Origin: Escherichia coli
Lineage (GTDB): Bacteria > Pseudomonadota > Gammaproteobacteria > Enterobacterales > Enterobacteriaceae
Direction: 5' to 3' (one strand)
DNA length: 64,000 bases
Assembly: GCF_048403405.1 (NCBI RefSeq)
Contig: NZ_CP183129.1
Shown here piece after piece: positions 23,060-52,667 of the stretch; position 1 is the first letter of the stretch; each line of letters starts with the position of its first letter. A program made the position numbers and the translations under genes. Below the pieces are notes generated by a model. That model did no database searches, had not been told where the DNA came from, and worked only from the letters and a program-made list of their open reading frames with translations.

Positions 23060-23770
23060 ATAAATATCCTCCGGCATAGCCGGAGGTTTTTCAAATGCGC
23101 CTATAAGGCTCTCTTACCAGCCGCGCCCTAACAGGCGCACACGATCTGACATTTGCATCCAACTTCGTTACTTACGGCCCGTAAACGGGCTGCCCGGATA
23201 GGGAATCGATAACTGCTCTCCCATTTTATCCTCTTCAAGCTGGTGCTTTATGTAATCCTGTATCTTCGCCGTGTTCTTACCCACCGTATCGACGTAGTAC
23301 CCTCTGCACCAGAACTCCCTGTTCCTGTATTTGAATTTCAAATCACCAAACTGCTCGTAAAGCATCAGACTGCTTTTCCCTTTCAGATATCCCATAAAGC
23401 CGGATACGCTCATTTTGGGCGGGATCTCCACAAGCATATGGATATGATCTGCACAGCATTCAGCTTCCAGAATCCGTACACTTTTCCACTCACACAGCTT
23501 TCTCAAAATACTGCCTATTGCTCTACGCTTCTCTCTGTAGAACACCTGTCTTCGGTATTTTGGCGCAAAAACTATGTGATATTTACAGTTCCATCGGGTG
23601 TGCGCTAAGCTCTTTTCGTTCCCCATTGGGACCCCCTTTTGATTTCTTGTTTGACACTTGCAGTTGCCAGACCGCAAGGTGTTTTAACAAATCAAAAGGG
23701 GTTTTAATAACTGGCTTAAAGCTGAAAGCTTTCCGGAACCCCCAGCCTAGCTGGGGGTTTTCTGTGCACA
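23060..23770 (-). mobile_element. IS200-like insertion sequence (IS200/IS605 family), ends approximate
   Basis: Single HUH/Y1 transposase gene preceded by long RBS-sequestering inverted repeat (23634-23702) and terminal palindrome cccccagc-cta-gctggggg; yaaX-thrC gap is ~710 bp longer than I recall for K-12. Confidence 0.65.
23168..23626 (-). CDS. tnpA: IS200-type transposase TnpA (Y1 HUH)
   Basis: 152-aa MGNEKSLAHTRWNCKYHIVFAPKYRR...HIHMLVEIPP... (HUH motif) within track ORF 23168..23677. Confidence 0.85.
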   Translation of the reverse strand: MGNEKSLAHTRWNCKYHIVFAPKYRRQVFYREKRRAIGSILRKLCEWKSVRILEAECCADHIHMLVEIPPKMSVSGFMGYLKGKSSLMLYEQFGDLKFKYRNREFWCRGYYVDTVGKNTAKIQDYIKHQLEEDKMGEQLSIPYPGSPFTGRK

Positions 23771-41648: not shown

Positions 41649-42536
41649 TTATTCACCGCGCAGGATCTGGCGGAAATGGGAAACCAGCGGACGTTGGTTG
41701 GCTTTATGCCAGGCTGCCCATAATTGCGTTGAATAATTCATCCACGGCAATTCACGTAATACCACCCCTTCCGGCGCATTATGACGAAGACTATGTTGAA
41801 TTAAGGCCAGACCTAATCCCGCAGCGACCAGACCTAATGCCGTGAGGGGTTCACCAGCTTCCAGGCGAATATCAGGATTAAACCCGGCATTAACACAGGC
41901 GGCGACAAAATGATCGCGAGAATGCGCATCGTCGTTATGAATCACCGCAATCCACTGCTCATCGCCAAGTTGTGACGCGACAAGGTTTTCCTCCTGCGCC
42001 AGAGGATGATTTTGCGGTAAGGCCAACAACATTCGATCATCCAGAACCTGAATATATTCCAGATCCTGCTCGCTGTCGGTGGGCGGCGTATCGACCAGAG
42101 AAAAATCGAGACTGCGCTGGCGAAGGCCTTCAATCTGGGTCGCCGGTGGTTGGCTGTAAAGTGCGATATGCACATTCGGACGCGATACACGTAACGTACG
42201 TAGCGCCGTAGAAAGCACACCGGAATGCATGGCGTTTTCGATATAGCCAATACACAAGCCACCATCTTCCCCCCGTCCCAGGCGTTTGCCTAACGACTCC
42301 AGGCGGTTGGCGTGTGTCAGCAACGAACGTGTTTCGGCAAGGAATGTCTGTCCATCAGCGGTCAGGCGAATGCGCTGCTGATTACGCTCAAACAGCGTCA
42401 GCCCCAGCCGTTCTTCCAGTTGCGCAATCTGGCGGCTCAGCGGTGATTGCGAGATATGTAATCGCTCGGCTGCGCGTCCCACGTGCTCTTCTTCTGCGAC
42501 CACCACGAAGTACTTCAGTTGGCGTAAATCAATCAT
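41649..42536 (-). CDS. LysR-family transcriptional regulator
   Basis: Track ORF 41649..42665; probable start MIDLRQLKYFVVVAEEEHVGRAAERLHISQSPLSRQIAQLE (HTH) 43 codons in; divergent from the reductase genes. Confidence 0.8.
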   Translation of the reverse strand: MIDLRQLKYFVVVAEEEHVGRAAERLHISQSPLSRQIAQLEERLGLTLFERNQQRIRLTADGQTFLAETRSLLTHANRLESLGKRLGRGEDGGLCIGYIENAMHSGVLSTALRTLRVSRPNVHIALYSQPPATQIEGLRQRSLDFSLVDTPPTDSEQDLEYIQVLDDRMLLALPQNHPLAQEENLVASQLGDEQWIAVIHNDDAHSRDHFVAACVNAGFNPDIRLEAGEPLTALGLVAAGLGLALIQHSLRHNAPEGVVLRELPWMNYSTQLWAAWHKANQRPLVSHFRQILRGE

Positions 42537-42668
42537 GTTAGACCTCAAAGGACTTAAGTCAGACAAATTATGTCCTATCAAGTCATAACCTCGCAAGGTA
42601 TTGTGATCCACGTCACAGGGCAATAGCAAAAAACGCCCGAACCCAAACCGAATAATTGAGGACATCTT

Positions 42669-43679
42669 ATGAGCATCAAAAATTTACTTCCCGGCAAAAT
42701 TGGCTTAGGCGGCGCACCACTCGGCAACATGTTCCGTGCCATTCCGGAAGAAGAGGCCCACGCCACCGTGAGCGAAGCCTGGAACCTGGGTGTGCGTTAC
42801 TTTGATACCGCGCCGCTGTACGGCTCTGGCCTTTCTGAAATCCGCATGGGTGAAGCGCTGTCTCAGTATCCACGCGATGAATACGTTCTGAGTAGCAAAG
42901 TCGGTCGCATCATGCTGGACGAAATGGAAGATCCGGCAAAACGGGATTTCGGTGAAAAAGGTGGCCTGTTCGAACACGGCCTGAAAAACAAAATTCTGAA
43001 TGACTACTCTGCTGACGCCACGCTGCGCTCGATTGAAGACAGCCTGAAACGCCTGAAAACAGATCGTCTGGATATTGTCTGGATCCACGACCCGGCGCAG
43101 GACTTCTACGGTGACAGCTGGCTGGAACAGTTCAACATAGCCCGTACCGGTGCGTTTCGTGCGCTGACGCGTTTGCGTGACGAAGGTGTGATTAAAGCCT
43201 GGGGACTGGGTGTGAATCGCGTCGAACCTTGCGAACTGACGCTGGCGCTGGACGAACCGAAGCCGGATGCGTTCCTGCTGGCGGGGCGTTATTCCCTGCT
43301 GGATCACGAACGTGCGCTGCAACGCCTGATGCCAGAAGCACTGGAACAGAACGTGGATATTGTTGTGGGCGGTCCGTACAGCTCTGGCGTACTGGCAGGC
43401 GGCGAGCACTTTGAATATCAGAAAGCTTCTGCGGCCATCCAGCAGAAAGTGGCGCAAATTAACGCCATTGCCACACGTTTCAATGTGAACGTTAAAGCAG
43501 CTGCGCTGCAGTTCGCGCTGGCAAACCCGGCCGTTGCAGCGGTTATTCCTGGCTCCAGCCGTCCTGGCCGTATGGCAGAAGATCTGGCTGCACTGAATGC
43601 GCCTGTTCCGGCTGAATTCTGGGCAGAAATGCGCCGTCAAAATCTGGTTGCGGAAAACGCTCCGCTGCCGACCCGTTAA
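42669..43679 (+). CDS. aldo-keto reductase family oxidoreductase
   Basis: 336 aa; AKR features (YFDTAPLYG, IHDP) in translation. Confidence 0.8.
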   Translation: MSIKNLLPGKIGLGGAPLGNMFRAIPEEEAHATVSEAWNLGVRYFDTAPLYGSGLSEIRMGEALSQYPRDEYVLSSKVGRIMLDEMEDPAKRDFGEKGGLFEHGLKNKILNDYSADATLRSIEDSLKRLKTDRLDIVWIHDPAQDFYGDSWLEQFNIARTGAFRALTRLRDEGVIKAWGLGVNRVEPCELTLALDEPKPDAFLLAGRYSLLDHERALQRLMPEALEQNVDIVVGGPYSSGVLAGGEHFEYQKASAAIQQKVAQINAIATRFNVNVKAAALQFALANPAVAAVIPGSSRPGRMAEDLAALNAPVPAEFWAEMRRQNLVAENAPLPTR

Positions 43680-43698
43680 TCAACCTGGTGAGAAAACG

Positions 43699-44496
43699 AT
43701 GAAACTGGATCTGACAGGTAAAGTCGCGGTGGTCAGCGGCTCAACCTCCGGCATTGGGCAGGGTATCGCCGCCGGACTGGCAAAAGCAGGCGCAACGGTG
43801 GTTGTCGTCGGCCGTAAACAGCGCGGCGTTGATGATGCCATGGCTGCGATTGCGGCACAAACTCCCACGGCGTCACTGCGTGGCGTGGTGGCCGATCTCA
43901 GCACCGAAGACGGCGTGGCTGCGCTGATCGCTGCAGTCCCAACGGCTGATGTGCTGGTCAATAATCTGGGCATTTTTAACGATAAAGATTTCTTTAGCGT
44001 TCCGGATGATGAGTGGATGCACTTCTATAACGTCAACGTCCTCTCCGGCGTTCGTCTGGCGCGTCACTATGCGCCAGGCATGACGGAACAGGGCTGGGGG
44101 CGGATTATCTTTGTCTCGTCCGAATCCGGCGTGGCAATTCCTGGCGACATGATCAACTACGGCGTCACCAAAGCTGCGAATCTGGCGGTCTCTCATGGTC
44201 TGGCGAAACGACTGGCGGGGACCGGTGTGACCGTCAACGCCATTCTGCCAGGGCCAACCTTTACCGATGGCCTGAAAGAGATGCTGGCGGATGCCGCTGC
44301 ACAATCGGGACGCAGTGCGCGTGAACAGGCCGATGAGTTTGTTAAAACCTCACGTCCGAGCTCCATCATCCAGCGTGCGGCAGAGGTGGAAGAAGTGGCG
44401 AATCTGGCGGTTTATCTCGCGTCACCGCTTTCCTCGGCAACCACAGGGGCAGCCCTGCGCGTCGATGGCGGCGTCGTCGACACCCTGACAATGTAA
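43699..44496 (+). CDS. short-chain dehydrogenase/reductase (SDR)
   Basis: Start MKLDLTGKVAVVSGSTSGIGQ (TGxxxGxG Rossmann motif) 34 codons into track ORF 43597..44496. Confidence 0.8.
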   Translation: MKLDLTGKVAVVSGSTSGIGQGIAAGLAKAGATVVVVGRKQRGVDDAMAAIAAQTPTASLRGVVADLSTEDGVAALIAAVPTADVLVNNLGIFNDKDFFSVPDDEWMHFYNVNVLSGVRLARHYAPGMTEQGWGRIIFVSSESGVAIPGDMINYGVTKAANLAVSHGLAKRLAGTGVTVNAILPGPTFTDGLKEMLADAAAQSGRSAREQADEFVKTSRPSSIIQRAAEVEEVANLAVYLASPLSSATTGAALRVDGGVVDTLTM

Positions 44497-44521
44497 CCCT
44501 ATAAATTAAGAGAAAATTATC

Positions 44522-44938
44522 ATGGCTAAAACAACTGTATCGATCGAAATTCCGGCTTCTGCCGACGCCGTATGGCAATTGATGGGCGGCTTTGATGCGC
44601 TGCCTGACTGGCTGCCGTTCATCCCGAAAAGCGTAGTGACAGAAGGAGGTCGCGTTCGTTCGCTGACAACCTCTGACGGCGGCACTGTGGTTGAACGTCT
44701 GGAAGCGTTTGATAACCGTCAACGCAGTTATACCTATTCCATTATTCAGGCACCGTTCCCGGTGGTGGATTACCTCTCCACCATTACCGTTCATGAAACC
44801 GCCGACAGCCAGGTTTCCCGTGTGGAATGGTTCGGTGAATTCACCCCGGTGAATGTGACGAACGAAGAGGCCGAAGCGCTGTTTACCGGCATCTATCGGG
44901 ATGGTCTCAAGGCGCTAAAGGACAACTTTGTTGCCTGA
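44522..44938 (+). CDS. SRPBCC / polyketide-cyclase-like small protein
   Basis: 138-aa ORF co-oriented 25 bp after the SDR gene; family assignment by general resemblance only. Confidence 0.5.
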   Translation: MAKTTVSIEIPASADAVWQLMGGFDALPDWLPFIPKSVVTEGGRVRSLTTSDGGTVVERLEAFDNRQRSYTYSIIQAPFPVVDYLSTITVHETADSQVSRVEWFGEFTPVNVTNEEAEALFTGIYRDGLKALKDNFVA

Positions 44939-45095
44939 TGCGATCGACAGGCGTCGGAACGTCCGGCGTCTGATTATTAACAAAAACAGAATAGTCTATT
45001 GCCATTTGTATCATTTATGTTATCAGGCAGCAGGCGTATTCTCTCCCCATCGCGTTAATAAACGCCAAACAATTAAGACACTCTGGAATATAAAC

Positions 45096-45308
45096 ATGAA
45101 AACGATCATCGCAATTTTTACAGCTTCTCTTTTCTCTGTCGCGGCGTTTAACGCATCGGCACAAAGCGTGACAGCAACCGGTACAACACTGGATTCTGCG
45201 GAAGCGGTTATTGCGCAGAAAGCGAAAGAGATGAACGCCTCTGAATATAAAATTACCAGCGCTCGCATGGGCAATACCGTCACCATGAGCGCCGAACTGT
45301 ACAAATAA
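45096..45308 (+). CDS. DUF1471 (BhsA/YdgH-like) small secreted protein
   Basis: 70 aa with signal peptide MKTIIAIFTASLFSVAAFNASA and ...GNTVTMSAELYK C-terminus typical of the family. Confidence 0.55.
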   Translation: MKTIIAIFTASLFSVAAFNASAQSVTATGTTLDSAEAVIAQKAKEMNASEYKITSARMGNTVTMSAELYK

Positions 45309-45356
45309 CCGCGCGAGGGACCCATTACGTAATTTGCTAAATATGCGCTGAATGCG

Positions 45357-45500
45357 TTGCCATTAAAAAACCGTATTGTAATGCCACCGATGACACGTTC
45401 TCGCGCGGGTGCGGGTGACGTTGCGATTGACATGATGGCGGAGTATTACGCGCAGCGCGCCAGTGCAGGACTTATCATCAGCGAAGGTACGCAAATCAGC
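45357..45500 (+). pseudogene. N-terminal remnant of an Old-Yellow-Enzyme / NemA-like NADH:flavin oxidoreductase
   Basis: LKNRIVMPPMTRSRA...AEYYAQRASAGLIISEGTQIS matches the OYE N-terminus, then the frame degenerates and stops. Confidence 0.5.
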
Positions 45501-45774
45501 AGAAGCGCTGCGCATAATTTTCCATGGCACGCTGATTTACTCCGGTAAATACACCAAAGCGCGCGCCGAAGCGGACTGTCAGATTTGATTGCATTTTGGC
45601 TACGCAACCGGTCAGTTGGAGTATGAAGTTGCTCACGAATAGCCTTAGCATCCGCAATTTCGTAGTGGGTCACCCGTGCAGGTTCTTTCTAATCTCAACA
45701 GCCTCTTCCAGAGAGGTTTTCAACTCATCAAAAAAACTCAATTTATACCTCGCCTTTGAGCCGTTTCGTCACGG

Positions 45775-47027: not shown

Positions 47028-48410
47028 TTATAAGTCGTCGAACACGCTAAGCGCGTCGGAGAGTTTTTTAACGCCAAAAATCTGCATCCCTTCCGGCGCT
47101 TTTTTCGGTACGTTAGCCGCCGGAACAATCGCCCGGCGAAAACCGTGTTTCGCCGCTTCAGAGATTCGTTCCTGACCGCTGGGCACCGGGCGGATCTCCC
47201 CTGCCAGCCCGACTTCACCAAACACCACCAGATCCTGCGGTAGCGGTCTGTCACGCAGGCTGGAAACCATCGCCAGCAGTAACGCTAAGTCGGCGCTGGT
47301 TTCGGTTACCTTCACGCCGCCGACCACGTTCACAAACACATCCTGATCGGCCATTTGCAGACCACCGTGACGGTGCAAGACAGCCAGCAGGATTGCCAGA
47401 CGGTTTTGTTCCAGCCCCACTGCCACGCGGCGCGGATTCGCCATCATCGAGTGATCGACCAGCGCCTGAATCTCCACCAGCAACGGACGCGTTCCTTCCC
47501 ACACCACCATCACGGAGCTGCCGGAGGTCACTTCATCTCCGCGACTTAAGAAAATTGCCGAAGGGTTGCTGACTTCACGCAGCCCCTGTTCGGTCATCGC
47601 GAAGACGCCCAGCTCATTCACCGCGCCGAAGCGGTTTTTATGGCTGCGCAAGGTGCGAAAACGGGAGTCGGCATCGCCATCCAAAAGCACCGAACAGTCG
47701 ATACAGTGTTCCAGCACTTTCGGGCCAGCCAGCGAACCATCTTTGGTTACGTGCCCCACCATGACAATCGCCACACCGCGCGTTTTGGCGAAGCGTGTCA
47801 AATAAGCCGCCGTTTCACGCACCTGCGCCACGCTGCCAGGCGATGATTGTACATCCGCCATATGCATCACCTGAATGGAGTCAATTACCATCAGCTTCGG
47901 TTGCTCTTCTTCGGCAATCAGGCAGATTTGCTCGATGCTGGTTTCCGACAACATATTGAGATTGTCAGTCGGCAGGCCAAGGCGATGAGCGCGCATTGCC
48001 ACCTGTTGCAGCGACTCTTCGCCGGTGACATACAGCGTTTTCATCTGCTGGGCCAGTTTGCACAGCGTTTGCAACAGCAGCGTGGATTTCCCCGCGCCTG
48101 GGTTACCGCCAATCAGAATGGCGCTTCCCGGCACCACCCCGCCGCCTAATACGCGGTCGAACTCTTTAAATCCGGTAGAAAAACGCGGCAGCTCCTCAAG
48201 GCTGATGTCGGAGAGTTTCTGGACTTTTGCCACTCCGGCGCTACCGGCATAGCCACTAAGACGCTCGTTACGCGCCACCGTTGGCGACGCAGCAAGACGC
48301 ACCTCGGTGATGGTGTTCCAGGCATGACAGGCACTGCACTGCCCCTGCCAGCGCGGATAATCGGCCCCGCATTCATTACAAACAAAGGCGCGTTTTGGAG
48401 CTTTTGCCAC
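47028..48410 (-). CDS. radA: DNA repair protein RadA (Sms)
   Basis: Track ORF 47028..48458; probable GTG start at VAKAPKRAFVCNECG (zinc finger) with GAGG upstream; Walker A GNPGAGKST. Confidence 0.93.
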   Translation of the reverse strand: MAKAPKRAFVCNECGADYPRWQGQCSACHAWNTITEVRLAASPTVARNERLSGYAGSAGVAKVQKLSDISLEELPRFSTGFKEFDRVLGGGVVPGSAILIGGNPGAGKSTLLLQTLCKLAQQMKTLYVTGEESLQQVAMRAHRLGLPTDNLNMLSETSIEQICLIAEEEQPKLMVIDSIQVMHMADVQSSPGSVAQVRETAAYLTRFAKTRGVAIVMVGHVTKDGSLAGPKVLEHCIDCSVLLDGDADSRFRTLRSHKNRFGAVNELGVFAMTEQGLREVSNPSAIFLSRGDEVTSGSSVMVVWEGTRPLLVEIQALVDHSMMANPRRVAVGLEQNRLAILLAVLHRHGGLQMADQDVFVNVVGGVKVTETSADLALLLAMVSSLRDRPLPQDLVVFGEVGLAGEIRPVPSGQERISEAAKHGFRRAIVPAANVPKKAPEGMQIFGVKKLSDALSVFDDL

Positions 48411-48458
48411 GGTGTACCTCGTTAATGCTGTGCCGCCCGCAGGATGACGGGCAGGCAA

Positions 48459-49427
48459 TTACTTCTGATTCAGGCTGCCAGAGAGGATGCAGAATACCCC
48501 CATCAGGTCAGCGTGACGGATGGTGACTTCCGTCTTTTCATTCACTTTTGGCTTGGCATGGTAGGCAATCCCCAGCCCTGCCGCTTTGATCATCGGCAGG
48601 TCATTGGCTCCATCACCAATCGCCACGGTCTGCGCCAGCGGGATTTCATACTCCTGCGCGAGGCGAGTCAGAGTTTTCGCTTTGTACTGCGCGTCTACGA
48701 TGTCGCCGATCACATTGCCGGTAAATTTACCGTCCATGATCTCCAGTTCATTGGCTACCACGGCTGTCAGGCGCAGCTTGTCGCGCAGGTATTCAGCAAA
48801 GAAAGTAAAGCCGCCGGAGGCAATCGCCACTTTCCAGCCCAGCGTTTCCAGCTTGAGCACCAGTTGCGTTAAGCCTGGCATCAGCGGCAGATTTTCACGC
48901 ACCTGTTGCAGAATATTGGCGTCAGCGCCTTTCAGCGTCGCCACGCGGCTGCGCAGGCTGGCGGTAAAATCGAGTTCGCCGCGCATCGCCCGTTCGGTTA
49001 CCTCCGCCACCATCTCGCCCGTTCCGGCCAGTTTGGCAATTTCATCAATACATTCAATCTGGATGGCGGTGGAATCCATGTCCATCACCAGCAAACCCGG
49101 CGTGCGCAGGTGCGGGATTTTCCCCAGCGGCGCGACATCCAGCTGCGCTTCGTGGGCCAGGCGCGTAGCCCGCGCGGTGAGTGAACCTGCCAGACGAATC
49201 ACCTGATAATCTTCCACGCACCAGGCGGCAACAATCACCATCGCAGCGCCCAGTTTGCTCTGGTATTGGGTCAGACGTTGTTTATCCAGCCCACGACCAT
49301 ACAGCAGCCAGCCGCTACGACCTGCGTGGTAATCCAGTGGCATCACTTCATCACCACTTAATGAAAGAGGCAGACCCGGCCATAAAGAGACATCTTCAGG
49401 CAGGTCGCACCAGGTAATGTTAGGCAT
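48459..49427 (-). CDS. serB: phosphoserine phosphatase
   Basis: Track ORF 48459..49580; MPNITWCDLPEDVSLWPGLPLSL starts 51 codons in (322 aa); DxD motif LLVMDMDST. Confidence 0.95.
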   Translation of the reverse strand: MPNITWCDLPEDVSLWPGLPLSLSGDEVMPLDYHAGRSGWLLYGRGLDKQRLTQYQSKLGAAMVIVAAWCVEDYQVIRLAGSLTARATRLAHEAQLDVAPLGKIPHLRTPGLLVMDMDSTAIQIECIDEIAKLAGTGEMVAEVTERAMRGELDFTASLRSRVATLKGADANILQQVRENLPLMPGLTQLVLKLETLGWKVAIASGGFTFFAEYLRDKLRLTAVVANELEIMDGKFTGNVIGDIVDAQYKAKTLTRLAQEYEIPLAQTVAIGDGANDLPMIKAAGLGIAYHAKPKVNEKTEVTIRHADLMGVFCILSGSLNQK

Positions 49428-49542
49428 TAAGGCTCCTGTAAAATCGTTCGAAGCAGGGAAAATAACGCATGAGGCTACCTTGTATCCATTGCTTCTGGCA
49501 ACATTAAGTCTCAAATTGTACTGACCCCAAAAAGTTGGACAG

Positions 49543-50394
49543 TTAAACACGAGGCATATAGGTCTGATTCCGATATTCAATTGGAGTCAGACCTTTTAAT
49601 TTCAGGCTAATTCTTCTGCTGTTGTAGTATTCAATATATTCCGTAACAGCATCCTTCAGTTCGCTTATATTACTGAACTCATCAAGATAAAAACACTCCG
49701 ACTTTAAGGTTCCAAAGAAACACTCCACCACAGCATTATCCAGACAATTGCCTTTTCTGGACATGCTTTGTTTAATACCATGTTCTTTAAGGATATTTTG
49801 ATATCTTCTCATACGATACTGCCATCCCTGGTCAGAGTGCAGAACAGGATGCTCGTGAGGATTAAGCTTTTTGAATGCCTGATCGAGCATATTCTCAACC
49901 ATGTTCATCACTGGTCTTTCCGAAAGGCTGTAAGAAATAACTTCGTTGTTGAAGAGATCTATTACTGGAGACAAATACAGCTTGCGCCCATTGACTACAA
50001 ATTCAGTAACATCGGTAACCCACTTCTCGTTTGGCCGCGTAGCCTTGAAATCTCTTTGGAGAACATTAGGGGCGGTTTGCCCTACCTCTCCTCTGTAAGA
50101 GCGGTATCGCTTGACCTTAATCGCTGCTTTAAGTGAGAGGGTTCCCATCAGGCGCTGAACAGCTTTATGGTTAATCTGTTTCCCTTCTCGATGAAGAGAC
50201 AGCGTTACCCTACGGTATCCGTATCGGCCTCTATTCTCGTGATAAATCTCACCAATACGCTTTTTAACGTCCGCATACTTGTCAGGCTTGCTGAGAGCCT
50301 TTAGATGGTAATAAAACGTACTGCGCGGTATCTCCGCAGCCCTGAGAAGCTCATCAAGAGGATAAAACTGCCTTAGCTCGTTGAGTACTTTTAC
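49543..50394 (-). CDS. insK: IS150 transposase orfB (DDE domain), expressed as orfAB fusion by -1 frameshift
   Basis: Frame lacks an ATG for its first ~80 codons; track lists only the distal 201 aa; overlaps orfA stop. Confidence 0.85.
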
Positions 50395-50912
50395 TTTTTC
50401 GTGGGATGAGCTAAGGCTTTCAGCTTTTTTAGATACATAAGCCGCGTTTCAAGAAATCGAACTTGCCTTTCAAGATCCTCAATGCGTCGGTCTTTTGACA
50501 GCTCCAATGCTGATGCCGCTTTTTCTGGATCAACTGATATTGCAATGTTTCTTTTGGTGCCAATCTTGAGCGCGCGTAAACCAGCTTCTCCGCGCTCTTC
50601 ATAGACCTTCAGCCACCTGGCTACAGAACCACTACCAGCAAGCATAAAGTGAGCAGCAGCCTGATTAAGGGACATGTGCTGCTCGATCACAGCTTTCACG
50701 ACCTTAATACGCAACTCTGGATCAGCACTAACGCCTTTAGGTTTGGGAATTAAACCTTTTTCTCCATGTTTTTCATAGAGGGCAACCCATGTCCTGACCT
50801 GGGTTCGGGGGACACCAAAACGTGCCGAGATGATCCTGTAACCATCATCAGTTGTGAAGTAGTGATTCACGACTTCAAGGCGCTTTTCAAAAGGGTATTT
50901 TGGCTTTGACAT
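50391..50912 (-). CDS. insJ: IS150 transposase orfA (HTH)
   Basis: 173 aa MSKPKYPFEKRLEVVNHYFTTDDGYRIISARFGVPRTQVRTWV... Confidence 0.9.
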   Translation of the reverse strand: MSKPKYPFEKRLEVVNHYFTTDDGYRIISARFGVPRTQVRTWVALYEKHGEKGLIPKPKGVSADPELRIKVVKAVIEQHMSLNQAAAHFMLAGSGSVARWLKVYEERGEAGLRALKIGTKRNIAISVDPEKAASALELSKDRRIEDLERQVRFLETRLMYLKKLKALAHPTKK

Positions 50913-50978
50913 ATTAGGGGCTATTCCATTTCATCGTCCAACAAAATGGGTGCAGTACAAATTTTCAAAGGGTGGAAG

Positions 50979-51623
50979 ATGGCTCGCACAAAACTGAAAT
51001 TCCGGCTGCATCGGGCAGTGATTGTCCTGTTCTGTCTTGCCTTGTTAGTGGCGCTGATGCAGGGGGCGTCATGGTTTAGTCAAAACCACCAGCGTCAGCG
51101 TAATCCACAGCTGGAAGAACTGGCCCGCACCCTGGCGCGTCAGGTGACGCTGAACGTTGCACCGCTGATGCGTACCGACTCACCGGATGAAAAACGCATT
51201 CAGGCGATCCTCGATCAGTTAACGGATGAAAGCCGTATCCTCGACGCGGGCGTGTATGACGAACAAGGCGATCTTATCGCCCGTGCTGGCGAAAGCGTCG
51301 AAGTGCGCGACCGGTTGGCGCTCGACGGCAAAAAAGCGGGCGGCTATTTTAACCAGCAGATTGTCGAACCAATTGCGGGTAAAAACGGACCGCTCGGCTA
51401 TCTGCGCCTGACGCTCGACACCCATACGCTCGCTACCGAAGCCCAACAGGTGGATAACACCACTAACATTTTACGCCTGATGTTGCTGCTCTCACTGGCA
51501 ATCGGCGTAGTGCTGACCCGCACGCTGCTACAGGGTAAACGCACCCGCTGGCAGCAATCGCCCTTCCTGTTAACCGCCAGCAAACCGGTGCCGGAAGAGG
51601 AAGAAAGCGAGAAAAAAGAGTGA
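50979..51623 (+). CDS. ytjB: membrane protein YtjB (Smp)
   Basis: Track ORF 50946..51623; MARTKLKFRLHRAVIVLFCLALLVALMQG starts 11 codons in. Confidence 0.85.
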   Translation: MARTKLKFRLHRAVIVLFCLALLVALMQGASWFSQNHQRQRNPQLEELARTLARQVTLNVAPLMRTDSPDEKRIQAILDQLTDESRILDAGVYDEQGDLIARAGESVEVRDRLALDGKKAGGYFNQQIVEPIAGKNGPLGYLRLTLDTHTLATEAQQVDNTTNILRLMLLLSLAIGVVLTRTLLQGKRTRWQQSPFLLTASKPVPEEEESEKKE

Positions 51624-51650
51624 CCCATTACTACAAGAAAGGAAATCGTT

Positions 51651-52667
51651 ATGTCCACATTACGCCTGCTCATTTCTGACTCTTACGACCCGTGGTTTAA
51701 CCTGGCGGTGGAGGAGTGTATTTTTCGCCAGATGCCCGCCACGCAGCGCGTTCTGTTTCTCTGGCGCAATGCCGACACGGTAGTGATTGGTCGCGCACAG
51801 AACCCGTGGAAAGAGTGTAATACCCGGCGGATGGAAGAAGATAACGTCCGCCTGGCGCGGCGCAGTAGCGGTGGCGGCGCGGTGTTCCACGATCTCGGTA
51901 ATACCTGCTTTACCTTTATGGCTGGCAAGCCGGAGTACGATAAAACTATCTCCACGTCGATTGTGCTTAATGCGCTGAACGCGCTCGGCGTCAGCGCCGA
52001 AGCGTCCGGACGTAACGATCTGGTGGTGAAAACCGCCGAAGGCGACCGCAAAGTCTCAGGCTCGGCCTATCGCGAAACCAAAGATCGCGGCTTCCACCAC
52101 GGCACCTTGCTGCTCAATGCCGACCTTAGCCGCCTGGCAAACTATCTCAATCCGGATAAAAAGAAACTGGCGGCGAAAGGCATTACGTCGGTACGTTCCC
52201 GAGTGACCAACCTCACCGAGCTGCTGCCGGGGATCACCCATGAGCAGGTTTGCGAGGCCATAACCGAGGCCTTTTTCGCCCATTATGGCGAGCGCGTGGA
52301 AGCAGAAATCATCTCCCCGGACAAAACGCCAGACTTGCCAAACTTCGCCGAAACCTTTGCCCGCCAGAGTAGCTGGGAATGGAACTTCGGTCAGGCTCCG
52401 GCATTCTCGCATCTGCTGGATGAACGCTTTACCTGGGGCGGTGTGGAACTGCATTTCGACGTTGAAAAAGGCCATATCACCCGCACCCAGGTGTTTACCG
52501 ACAGCCTCAACCCCGCGCCGCTGGAAGCCCTCGCCGGACGACTGCAAGGCTGCCTGTACCGCGCTGACATGCTGCAACAGGAGTGTGAAGCGCTGTTGGT
52601 TGACTTCCCGGAACAGGAAAAAGAGCTACGGGAGTTATCGGCATGGATAGCGGGGGCGGTACGGTAA
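51651..52667 (+). CDS. lplA: lipoate-protein ligase A
   Basis: 338 aa [57 protein letters not shown]... Confidence 0.95.

Follow-up and report, generated by a model that had tools for sequence, protein, structure and literature searches.

A probable recent transposition of IS150 into the divergent serB-ytjB spacer of an Escherichia coli strain

Insertion sequences of the IS3 family move by copy-out/paste-in transposition via a circular intermediate, using a frameshifted OrfAB transposase. Imperfect terminal inverted repeats of the form TG...CA and short target duplications (3-4 bp) are marks of IS150. Copies of IS150 lie, for example, between hokB and trg in K-12 HMS174 and between hokA and glyS in isolate 68, where they are bordered by 3-bp target duplications (GGC and CTT, respectively). 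Two previous studies looked at transcription leaving the element. A proto-gene study of the Lenski long-term evolution experiment (LTEE) reported an outward-facing promoter at the IS150 3' end, with downstream transcription that was modest and significant in 12 of 55 regions (PMC11101190). In a reporter study, the outermost 150 bp at each end of IS150 gave no detectable promoter activity, whichever strand was used (PMC12095673). The two are in conflict over the outward IS150 promoter.

Here, we analysed an IS150 copy found between serB and ytjB in a 64-kb stretch of E. coli DNA, called the window below. We propose that a recent and simple transposition of this IS3-family element took place into the 105-bp divergent serB-ytjB spacer, in an E. 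coli lineage of human-clinical type. In this reading, to which we give a probability of about 0.93, the insertion is by default neutral or mildly deleterious, ytjB would have lost its promoter, and serB would have retained its own.

A complete IS150 with intact coding capacity

The whole present serB-ytjB intergenic region spans positions 49428-50978, and IS150 alone occupies 49517-50959 on the minus strand. Sequence and length both identify it as a complete copy of exactly 1443 bp. It is identical over its full length (1443/1443) to copies annotated as "IS3-like element IS150 family transposase" in many E. coli genomes, so that chance resemblance is no possible explanation. The hokA-glyS IS150 of the close relative OX030728 (isolate 68) is base-identical to it, and the hokB-trg copy of K-12 HMS174 matches at 1439 of 1443 positions, i.e., with 4 nucleotide differences. 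On the plus strand the element begins with TGTACTGACCCC at 49517 and finishes with GGGTGCAGTACA at 50959; read across both junctions, the order is AGTCTCAAAT in the serB-side flank, TGTACTGACCCCAAAAAGTTGG at the start of IS150, GGGTGCAGTACA at its end, and AATTTTCAAAGGGTGGAAGATG in the ytjB-side flank. Because the transposase genes are on the minus strand, the left terminal inverted repeat (IRL, 50929-50959, reading TGTACTGCACCC on the minus strand) lies beside ytjB, and the right one (IRR, 49517-49547, minus strand, ending in CAGTACA in transposase orientation) lies beside serB. The two repeats share all 7 terminal bases (TGTACTG at both ends) and 22 of the first 31. An earlier note on this DNA had described a complete 1443-bp IS150 with intact terminal repeats, and the full-length identity and the 22/31 match of the ends bear this out.

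The coding capacity looks like that of an active element. The insJ-type orfA (50391-50912, minus strand) encodes 173 amino acids and is intact according to the open reading frame list and the comparison with K-12. It contains the slippery heptamer A_AAA_AAG (50424-50430, minus strand) of a -1 programmed frameshift; AAAAAAG occurs only once in IS150, and its first base is the third base of an orfA codon, which is the right register. Shortly downstream, a stem-loop (50366-50417, minus strand) with a core 10-bp stem, GCCUUAGCUC/GAGCUAAGGC, is presumed to be the frameshift stimulator. It folds with a minimum free energy of -18.3 kcal/mol (z = -3.1), and none of 200 shuffled sequences was as stable. 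The orfB frame (49543-50448, minus strand) has 301 codons without a stop and carries the catalytic part of the transposase. Joined, orfA and orfB give a 456-amino-acid OrfAB fusion with 2 amino acid differences from the K-12 copy. This fusion matches the NCBIfam profile NF033516, "IS3 family transposase," with 413 bits (cut-off, 160) over profile positions 1-369 of 369, and it is this match to the whole fusion that identifies a DDE (retroviral-integrase-like) transposase. RefSeq labels the identical gene "programmed frameshift," and here the frameshift is predicted from sequence. Every sequence-testable defining feature of IS150 and of the IS3 family is thus present in the serB-ytjB copy, which looks functional and fully able to transpose again.

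Two further observations concern the element and its close surroundings. Inside the 3' end of orfB, the plus strand at 49560-49594 has a terminator-like hairpin, with a 15-bp stem followed by the T-rich tail TTTAATTTCA. Its orientation opposes transcription entering IS150 via the right end, on the serB side, and it could shield IS150, and here also ytjB, against outside transcription. The flank at 49485-49503, 14-32 bp from the insertion point, is similar at 14 of 19 positions to the inner IRL (50925-50943) in the same orientation. We rejected this likeness as significant: it probably arose by chance, as 20 short two-copy matches of this order were listed in all, and the similarity fades beyond 19 nucleotides. 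There is no second IS150 copy within the 64-kb window.

A private insertion at a conserved spacer

The trinucleotide AAT is found on both sides of IS150, at 49514-49516 next to serB and at 50960-50962 next to ytjB. The empty site of strain 4621 reads GTCTCAAATTTTCAAAGG and has AAT only once. In that genome, the left flank extends to position 1474 of L001 and the right one begins at 1472. The overlap consists of exactly the three bases AAT, which are therefore a genuine target duplication. By their record coordinates, the flanks share 3 bases in each of the six near-identical genomes. A T follows AAT in the target, so the junctions alone are also compatible with a 1444-bp element and a 2-bp duplication. 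The canonical 1443-bp ends are found identically at other sites, and hence the duplication is of 3 bp. The AAT duplication had already been noticed in the earlier note, which also proposed an alignment to an IS150 reference as a check of terminal repeats and duplication; the aligned copies and the empty site of strain 4621 confirm both.

Flanks matching at about 100% (20 kb on the left and 13 kb on the right) were found in six complete genomes only: strain 4621 (blood, Houston), isolate 68 (OX030728, from a Spanish hospital), MS 69-1, GN02461, TUM1226, and TUM14771. All six are described as human clinical isolates, with a human host on record for five of them. Only eight records exceed 99% flank identity; for REL606 and the K-12 strains the value lies in the range 95-99%. 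From this we reject a B-strain or K-12 background, and the suggestion that IS150 hints at a B strain does not hold: IS150-like sequence occurs in 2,864 of 5,426 complete E. coli genomes (53%; median of 2 places, maximum of 14), and its presence is therefore no indicator of such strains. Both flanks are collinear with the empty-site genomes, over 49.5 kb on the left and 13 kb on the right, and window positions 1-49516 (about 49.5 kb) differ from strain 4621 by 6 substitutions and no indels. By these alignments the event reads as a simple insertion, without associated rearrangement, that followed the split from very close relatives.

The survey of these 5,426 genomes counted a query as present when one place covered at least 80% of it. 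No genome did so for the query spanning both junctions, while the reconstructed 600-bp empty site was found in 5,424. Neither IS150 nor any other large insertion was found in the serB-ytjB spacer in this set. The spacer is interrupted practically never, and the present insertion is private. Since it is absent from 5,426 genomes and the relatives matching at about 100% have an empty site, we consider it recent and private to the strain. This agrees with the simple and relatively recent transposition claimed before, which is also favoured by the collinear flanks, where 49.5 kb hold 6 substitutions and not one indel. The 225-amino-acid open reading frame that IS150 creates by extending YtjB was used as a junction marker, and no such protein is on record in the assembly collection.

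Some features of the window are independent of IS150. Compared with strain 4621, codon 61 of serB (Ala61, window position 49245) has changed synonymously from GCG to GCT. The best identity of the 600-bp empty-site query in any of the 5,424 genomes was 99.8%, or one mismatch, and base 49245 appears to be private to the strain, like IS150; the mismatch was placed at 49245 for strain 4621 only. Between ettA and nadR, at 41649-45741, there is an accessory block encoding a LysR-type regulator, an aldo/keto reductase, an SDR oxidoreductase, an SRPBCC protein, and a YdgH/BhsA/McbA-family protein, together with two pseudogene fragments, one of them NadS. The 20-kb left flank is covered to at least 80% in only 481 of 5,426 genomes, and this block may explain such low coverage. 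An IS200C tnpA (IS200/IS605 family) lies at 23168-23626 between a DUF2502 gene and thrC, according to annotation transferred from the collinear strain 4621. The type III effector gene espX1 and a four-gene chaperone-usher fimbrial cluster lie at 3516-9940, between rpsT and nhaR.

Predicted consequences for serB and ytjB

The insertion divides the native spacer of 105 bp unequally, leaving 89 bp with serB and 19 bp with ytjB (AAT being counted on both sides). The gene for phosphoserine phosphatase, serB, is intact at 48459-49427 on the minus strand, and ytjB (smp), with 214 codons, is intact at 50979-51623 on the plus strand; both assignments come from the open reading frame list and from the annotation of strain 4621, carried over to the window. 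Translation of serB starts at 49425-49427 (CAT on the plus strand), its product starts with MPNITWCDLPEDV, and its coordinates are the same in strain 4621. There are 89 nucleotides between this ATG and IS150, which puts the first base of the element 90 bp upstream. The ytjB ATG is at 50979-50981, separated from IS150 by 19 nucleotides, with the last base of the element 20 bp upstream. Both distances, 90 bp and about 20 bp from starts at 49427 and 50979, had been given correctly in the earlier note. Its statement that serB is separated from most of its native upstream region is overstated, in that 89 of 105 bp stay with serB. The gene that has lost nearly all its upstream DNA is ytjB rather than serB. 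The suggestion in the note that expression of both genes may be altered is plausible.

On the serB side, the native DNA at 49428-49516 is kept. A standard scan for promoters and terminators was of no help for the intergenic region, and in the empty serB-ytjB spacer it picked out nothing resembling a promoter. A looser position-weighted scoring gave, as the two best sigma-70-like candidates for serB, TTGCCA-18-TAGCCT (49501 to 49472) and TGGATA-18-TATTTT (49488 to 49459), both of which fall within the 89 bp that serB keeps. IS150 has its 3' end and its transposase transcription directed at serB, and a modest read-out from the element into this gene may occur by analogy with the LTEE insertions. 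At the junction of IRR and flank, the last four bases of IS150 (TACA) and the flanking AT make TACAAT (49520-49515, minus strand, facing serB), which agrees with the -10 consensus at 5 of 6 positions; its -35 partner, CTGTCC, is weak. The same hexamer would be formed by IS150 beside any target starting with AT on the serB-type side. Given the retained candidate core promoter and the IS150 3' end that points toward the gene, serB is expected to stay expressed, and the strain probably stays prototrophic in this respect.

The product of ytjB is a conserved envelope protein of unknown function. Its gene has 19 bp (50960-50978) of its native upstream sequence left, among them the purine-rich GGTGGAAG; this candidate, picked by eye, could be the ribosome-binding site of ytjB. 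The candidate ytjB promoters of the empty site are weak. The insertion point cuts through some (TTGCTT-16/17-TCAAAT/CAAATT), and the others now lie on the far side of IS150. Since the gene is severed from all DNA beyond 19 bp upstream of its ATG, promoter loss is expected, and ytjB most likely has lost its native promoter and would be poorly expressed or strongly down-regulated. The element itself has a perfect TTGACA facing ytjB (50906-50911, plus strand) with a poor -10 (TTTCAT), which could yield some ytjB expression. The silence of the IS150 ends in reporter assays (PMC12095673) argues against the left end driving the gene. Starting from an in-frame ATG within this left end, the ytjB reading frame would be 11 codons longer (MGAVQIFKGWK-, 50946-50978); this start codon is probably unused. 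The next gene, lplA, begins 27 bp past the end of ytjB. An RpoD-holoenzyme binding site reported in the ytjB-lplA spacer (PMC3946193) suggests that lplA has a promoter of its own, and polarity on lplA need not follow. The literature on ytjB also gave a sigma-54 site, unrelated to this matter. A literature search for mapped serB or ytjB transcription start sites found none, and the only Rfam matches in 48400-51700 were eukaryotic ones at the level of chance.

Origin, rival explanations, and known IS150 insertions

How could the insertion have arisen? By the established mechanism of the IS3 family, a -1 ribosomal frameshift at A_AAA_AAG would yield OrfAB, which would copy IS150 out as a circle; the circle would then be pasted into a staggered 3-bp cut of the target, and repair of the cut would produce the AAT duplication. 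The presence of an identical IS150 at another locus in the close relative isolate 68 is compatible with copy-out/paste-in, and a copy of the kind found there between hokA and glyS could have been the donor.

One may ask instead whether the insertion was placed by the assembler or retained by selection. Insertion sequences are a classic source of misassembly, and an IS150 repeat wrongly put into the serB-ytjB spacer would be seen, as here, in no other of the 5,426 genomes. Yet a wrongly placed repeat does not come with base-exact termini and a clean 3-bp duplication of target sequence that relatives carry once. Both flanks also run on collinearly, for 49.5 kb and 13 kb, and we consider an artefact very improbable. 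The other rival is an adaptive regulatory mutation, selected because it silences ytjB or because read-out from IS150 raises or deregulates serB. The element directs its 3' end and its transposase genes into serB, an outward-facing promoter has been reported at that end (PMC11101190), the junction creates TACAAT with its 5/6 match to the -10 consensus and its weak -35 CTGTCC, and the spacer is uninterrupted in 5,424 of 5,426 genomes, so that the regulatory state of this strain would be unusual. However, only one genome is known to have the insertion, other lineages show no parallel events, and private intergenic insertions of this kind are the normal outcome of neutral or mildly deleterious transposition. 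The read-out in question was modest and mostly non-significant where it was reported (PMC11101190), and the terminal 150 bp lacked promoter activity in the reporter assay (PMC12095673). We thus regard such an adaptive origin as very unlikely.

A broader version, in which the control region has been rewired, with ytjB silenced and serB kept on or boosted by read-out or by TACAAT, would mean that ytjB is naturally knocked down in the strain, perhaps through selection; this we find improbable as well. We see no sign of selection, and a neutral or mildly deleterious insertion private to the strain remains the default reading of what we consider a recent and simple IS150 transposition. It offers a clean private marker for the strain or clone, and has little importance beyond strain typing. 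It also indicates that IS150 is active, or was recently active, in a clinical-type lineage, and that the strain may be a natural ytjB promoter mutant.

On the serB side, the geometry is like that of the LTEE insertions in E. coli B REL606 (PMC11101190), with the 3' end of IS150 in sense orientation toward the downstream region. In contrast to these, the background here is of clinical type and not B, and the downstream gene, serB, already has a promoter region of its own. In the LTEE insertions, read-out from the IS150 3' end activates downstream DNA, whereas the serB-ytjB insertion is known here from its sequence. Both the element and the event are of a familiar kind and reveal no new type of element or mechanism; what is new is the site, which is private to the strain. 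Compared with the reference IS150 copies at hokB-trg in K-12 HMS174 and at hokA-glyS, it has the same length, the same TGTACTG...CAGTACA ends, the same frames, frameshift, and stem-loop, and the same 3-bp duplication length, and the place of insertion is the sole difference.
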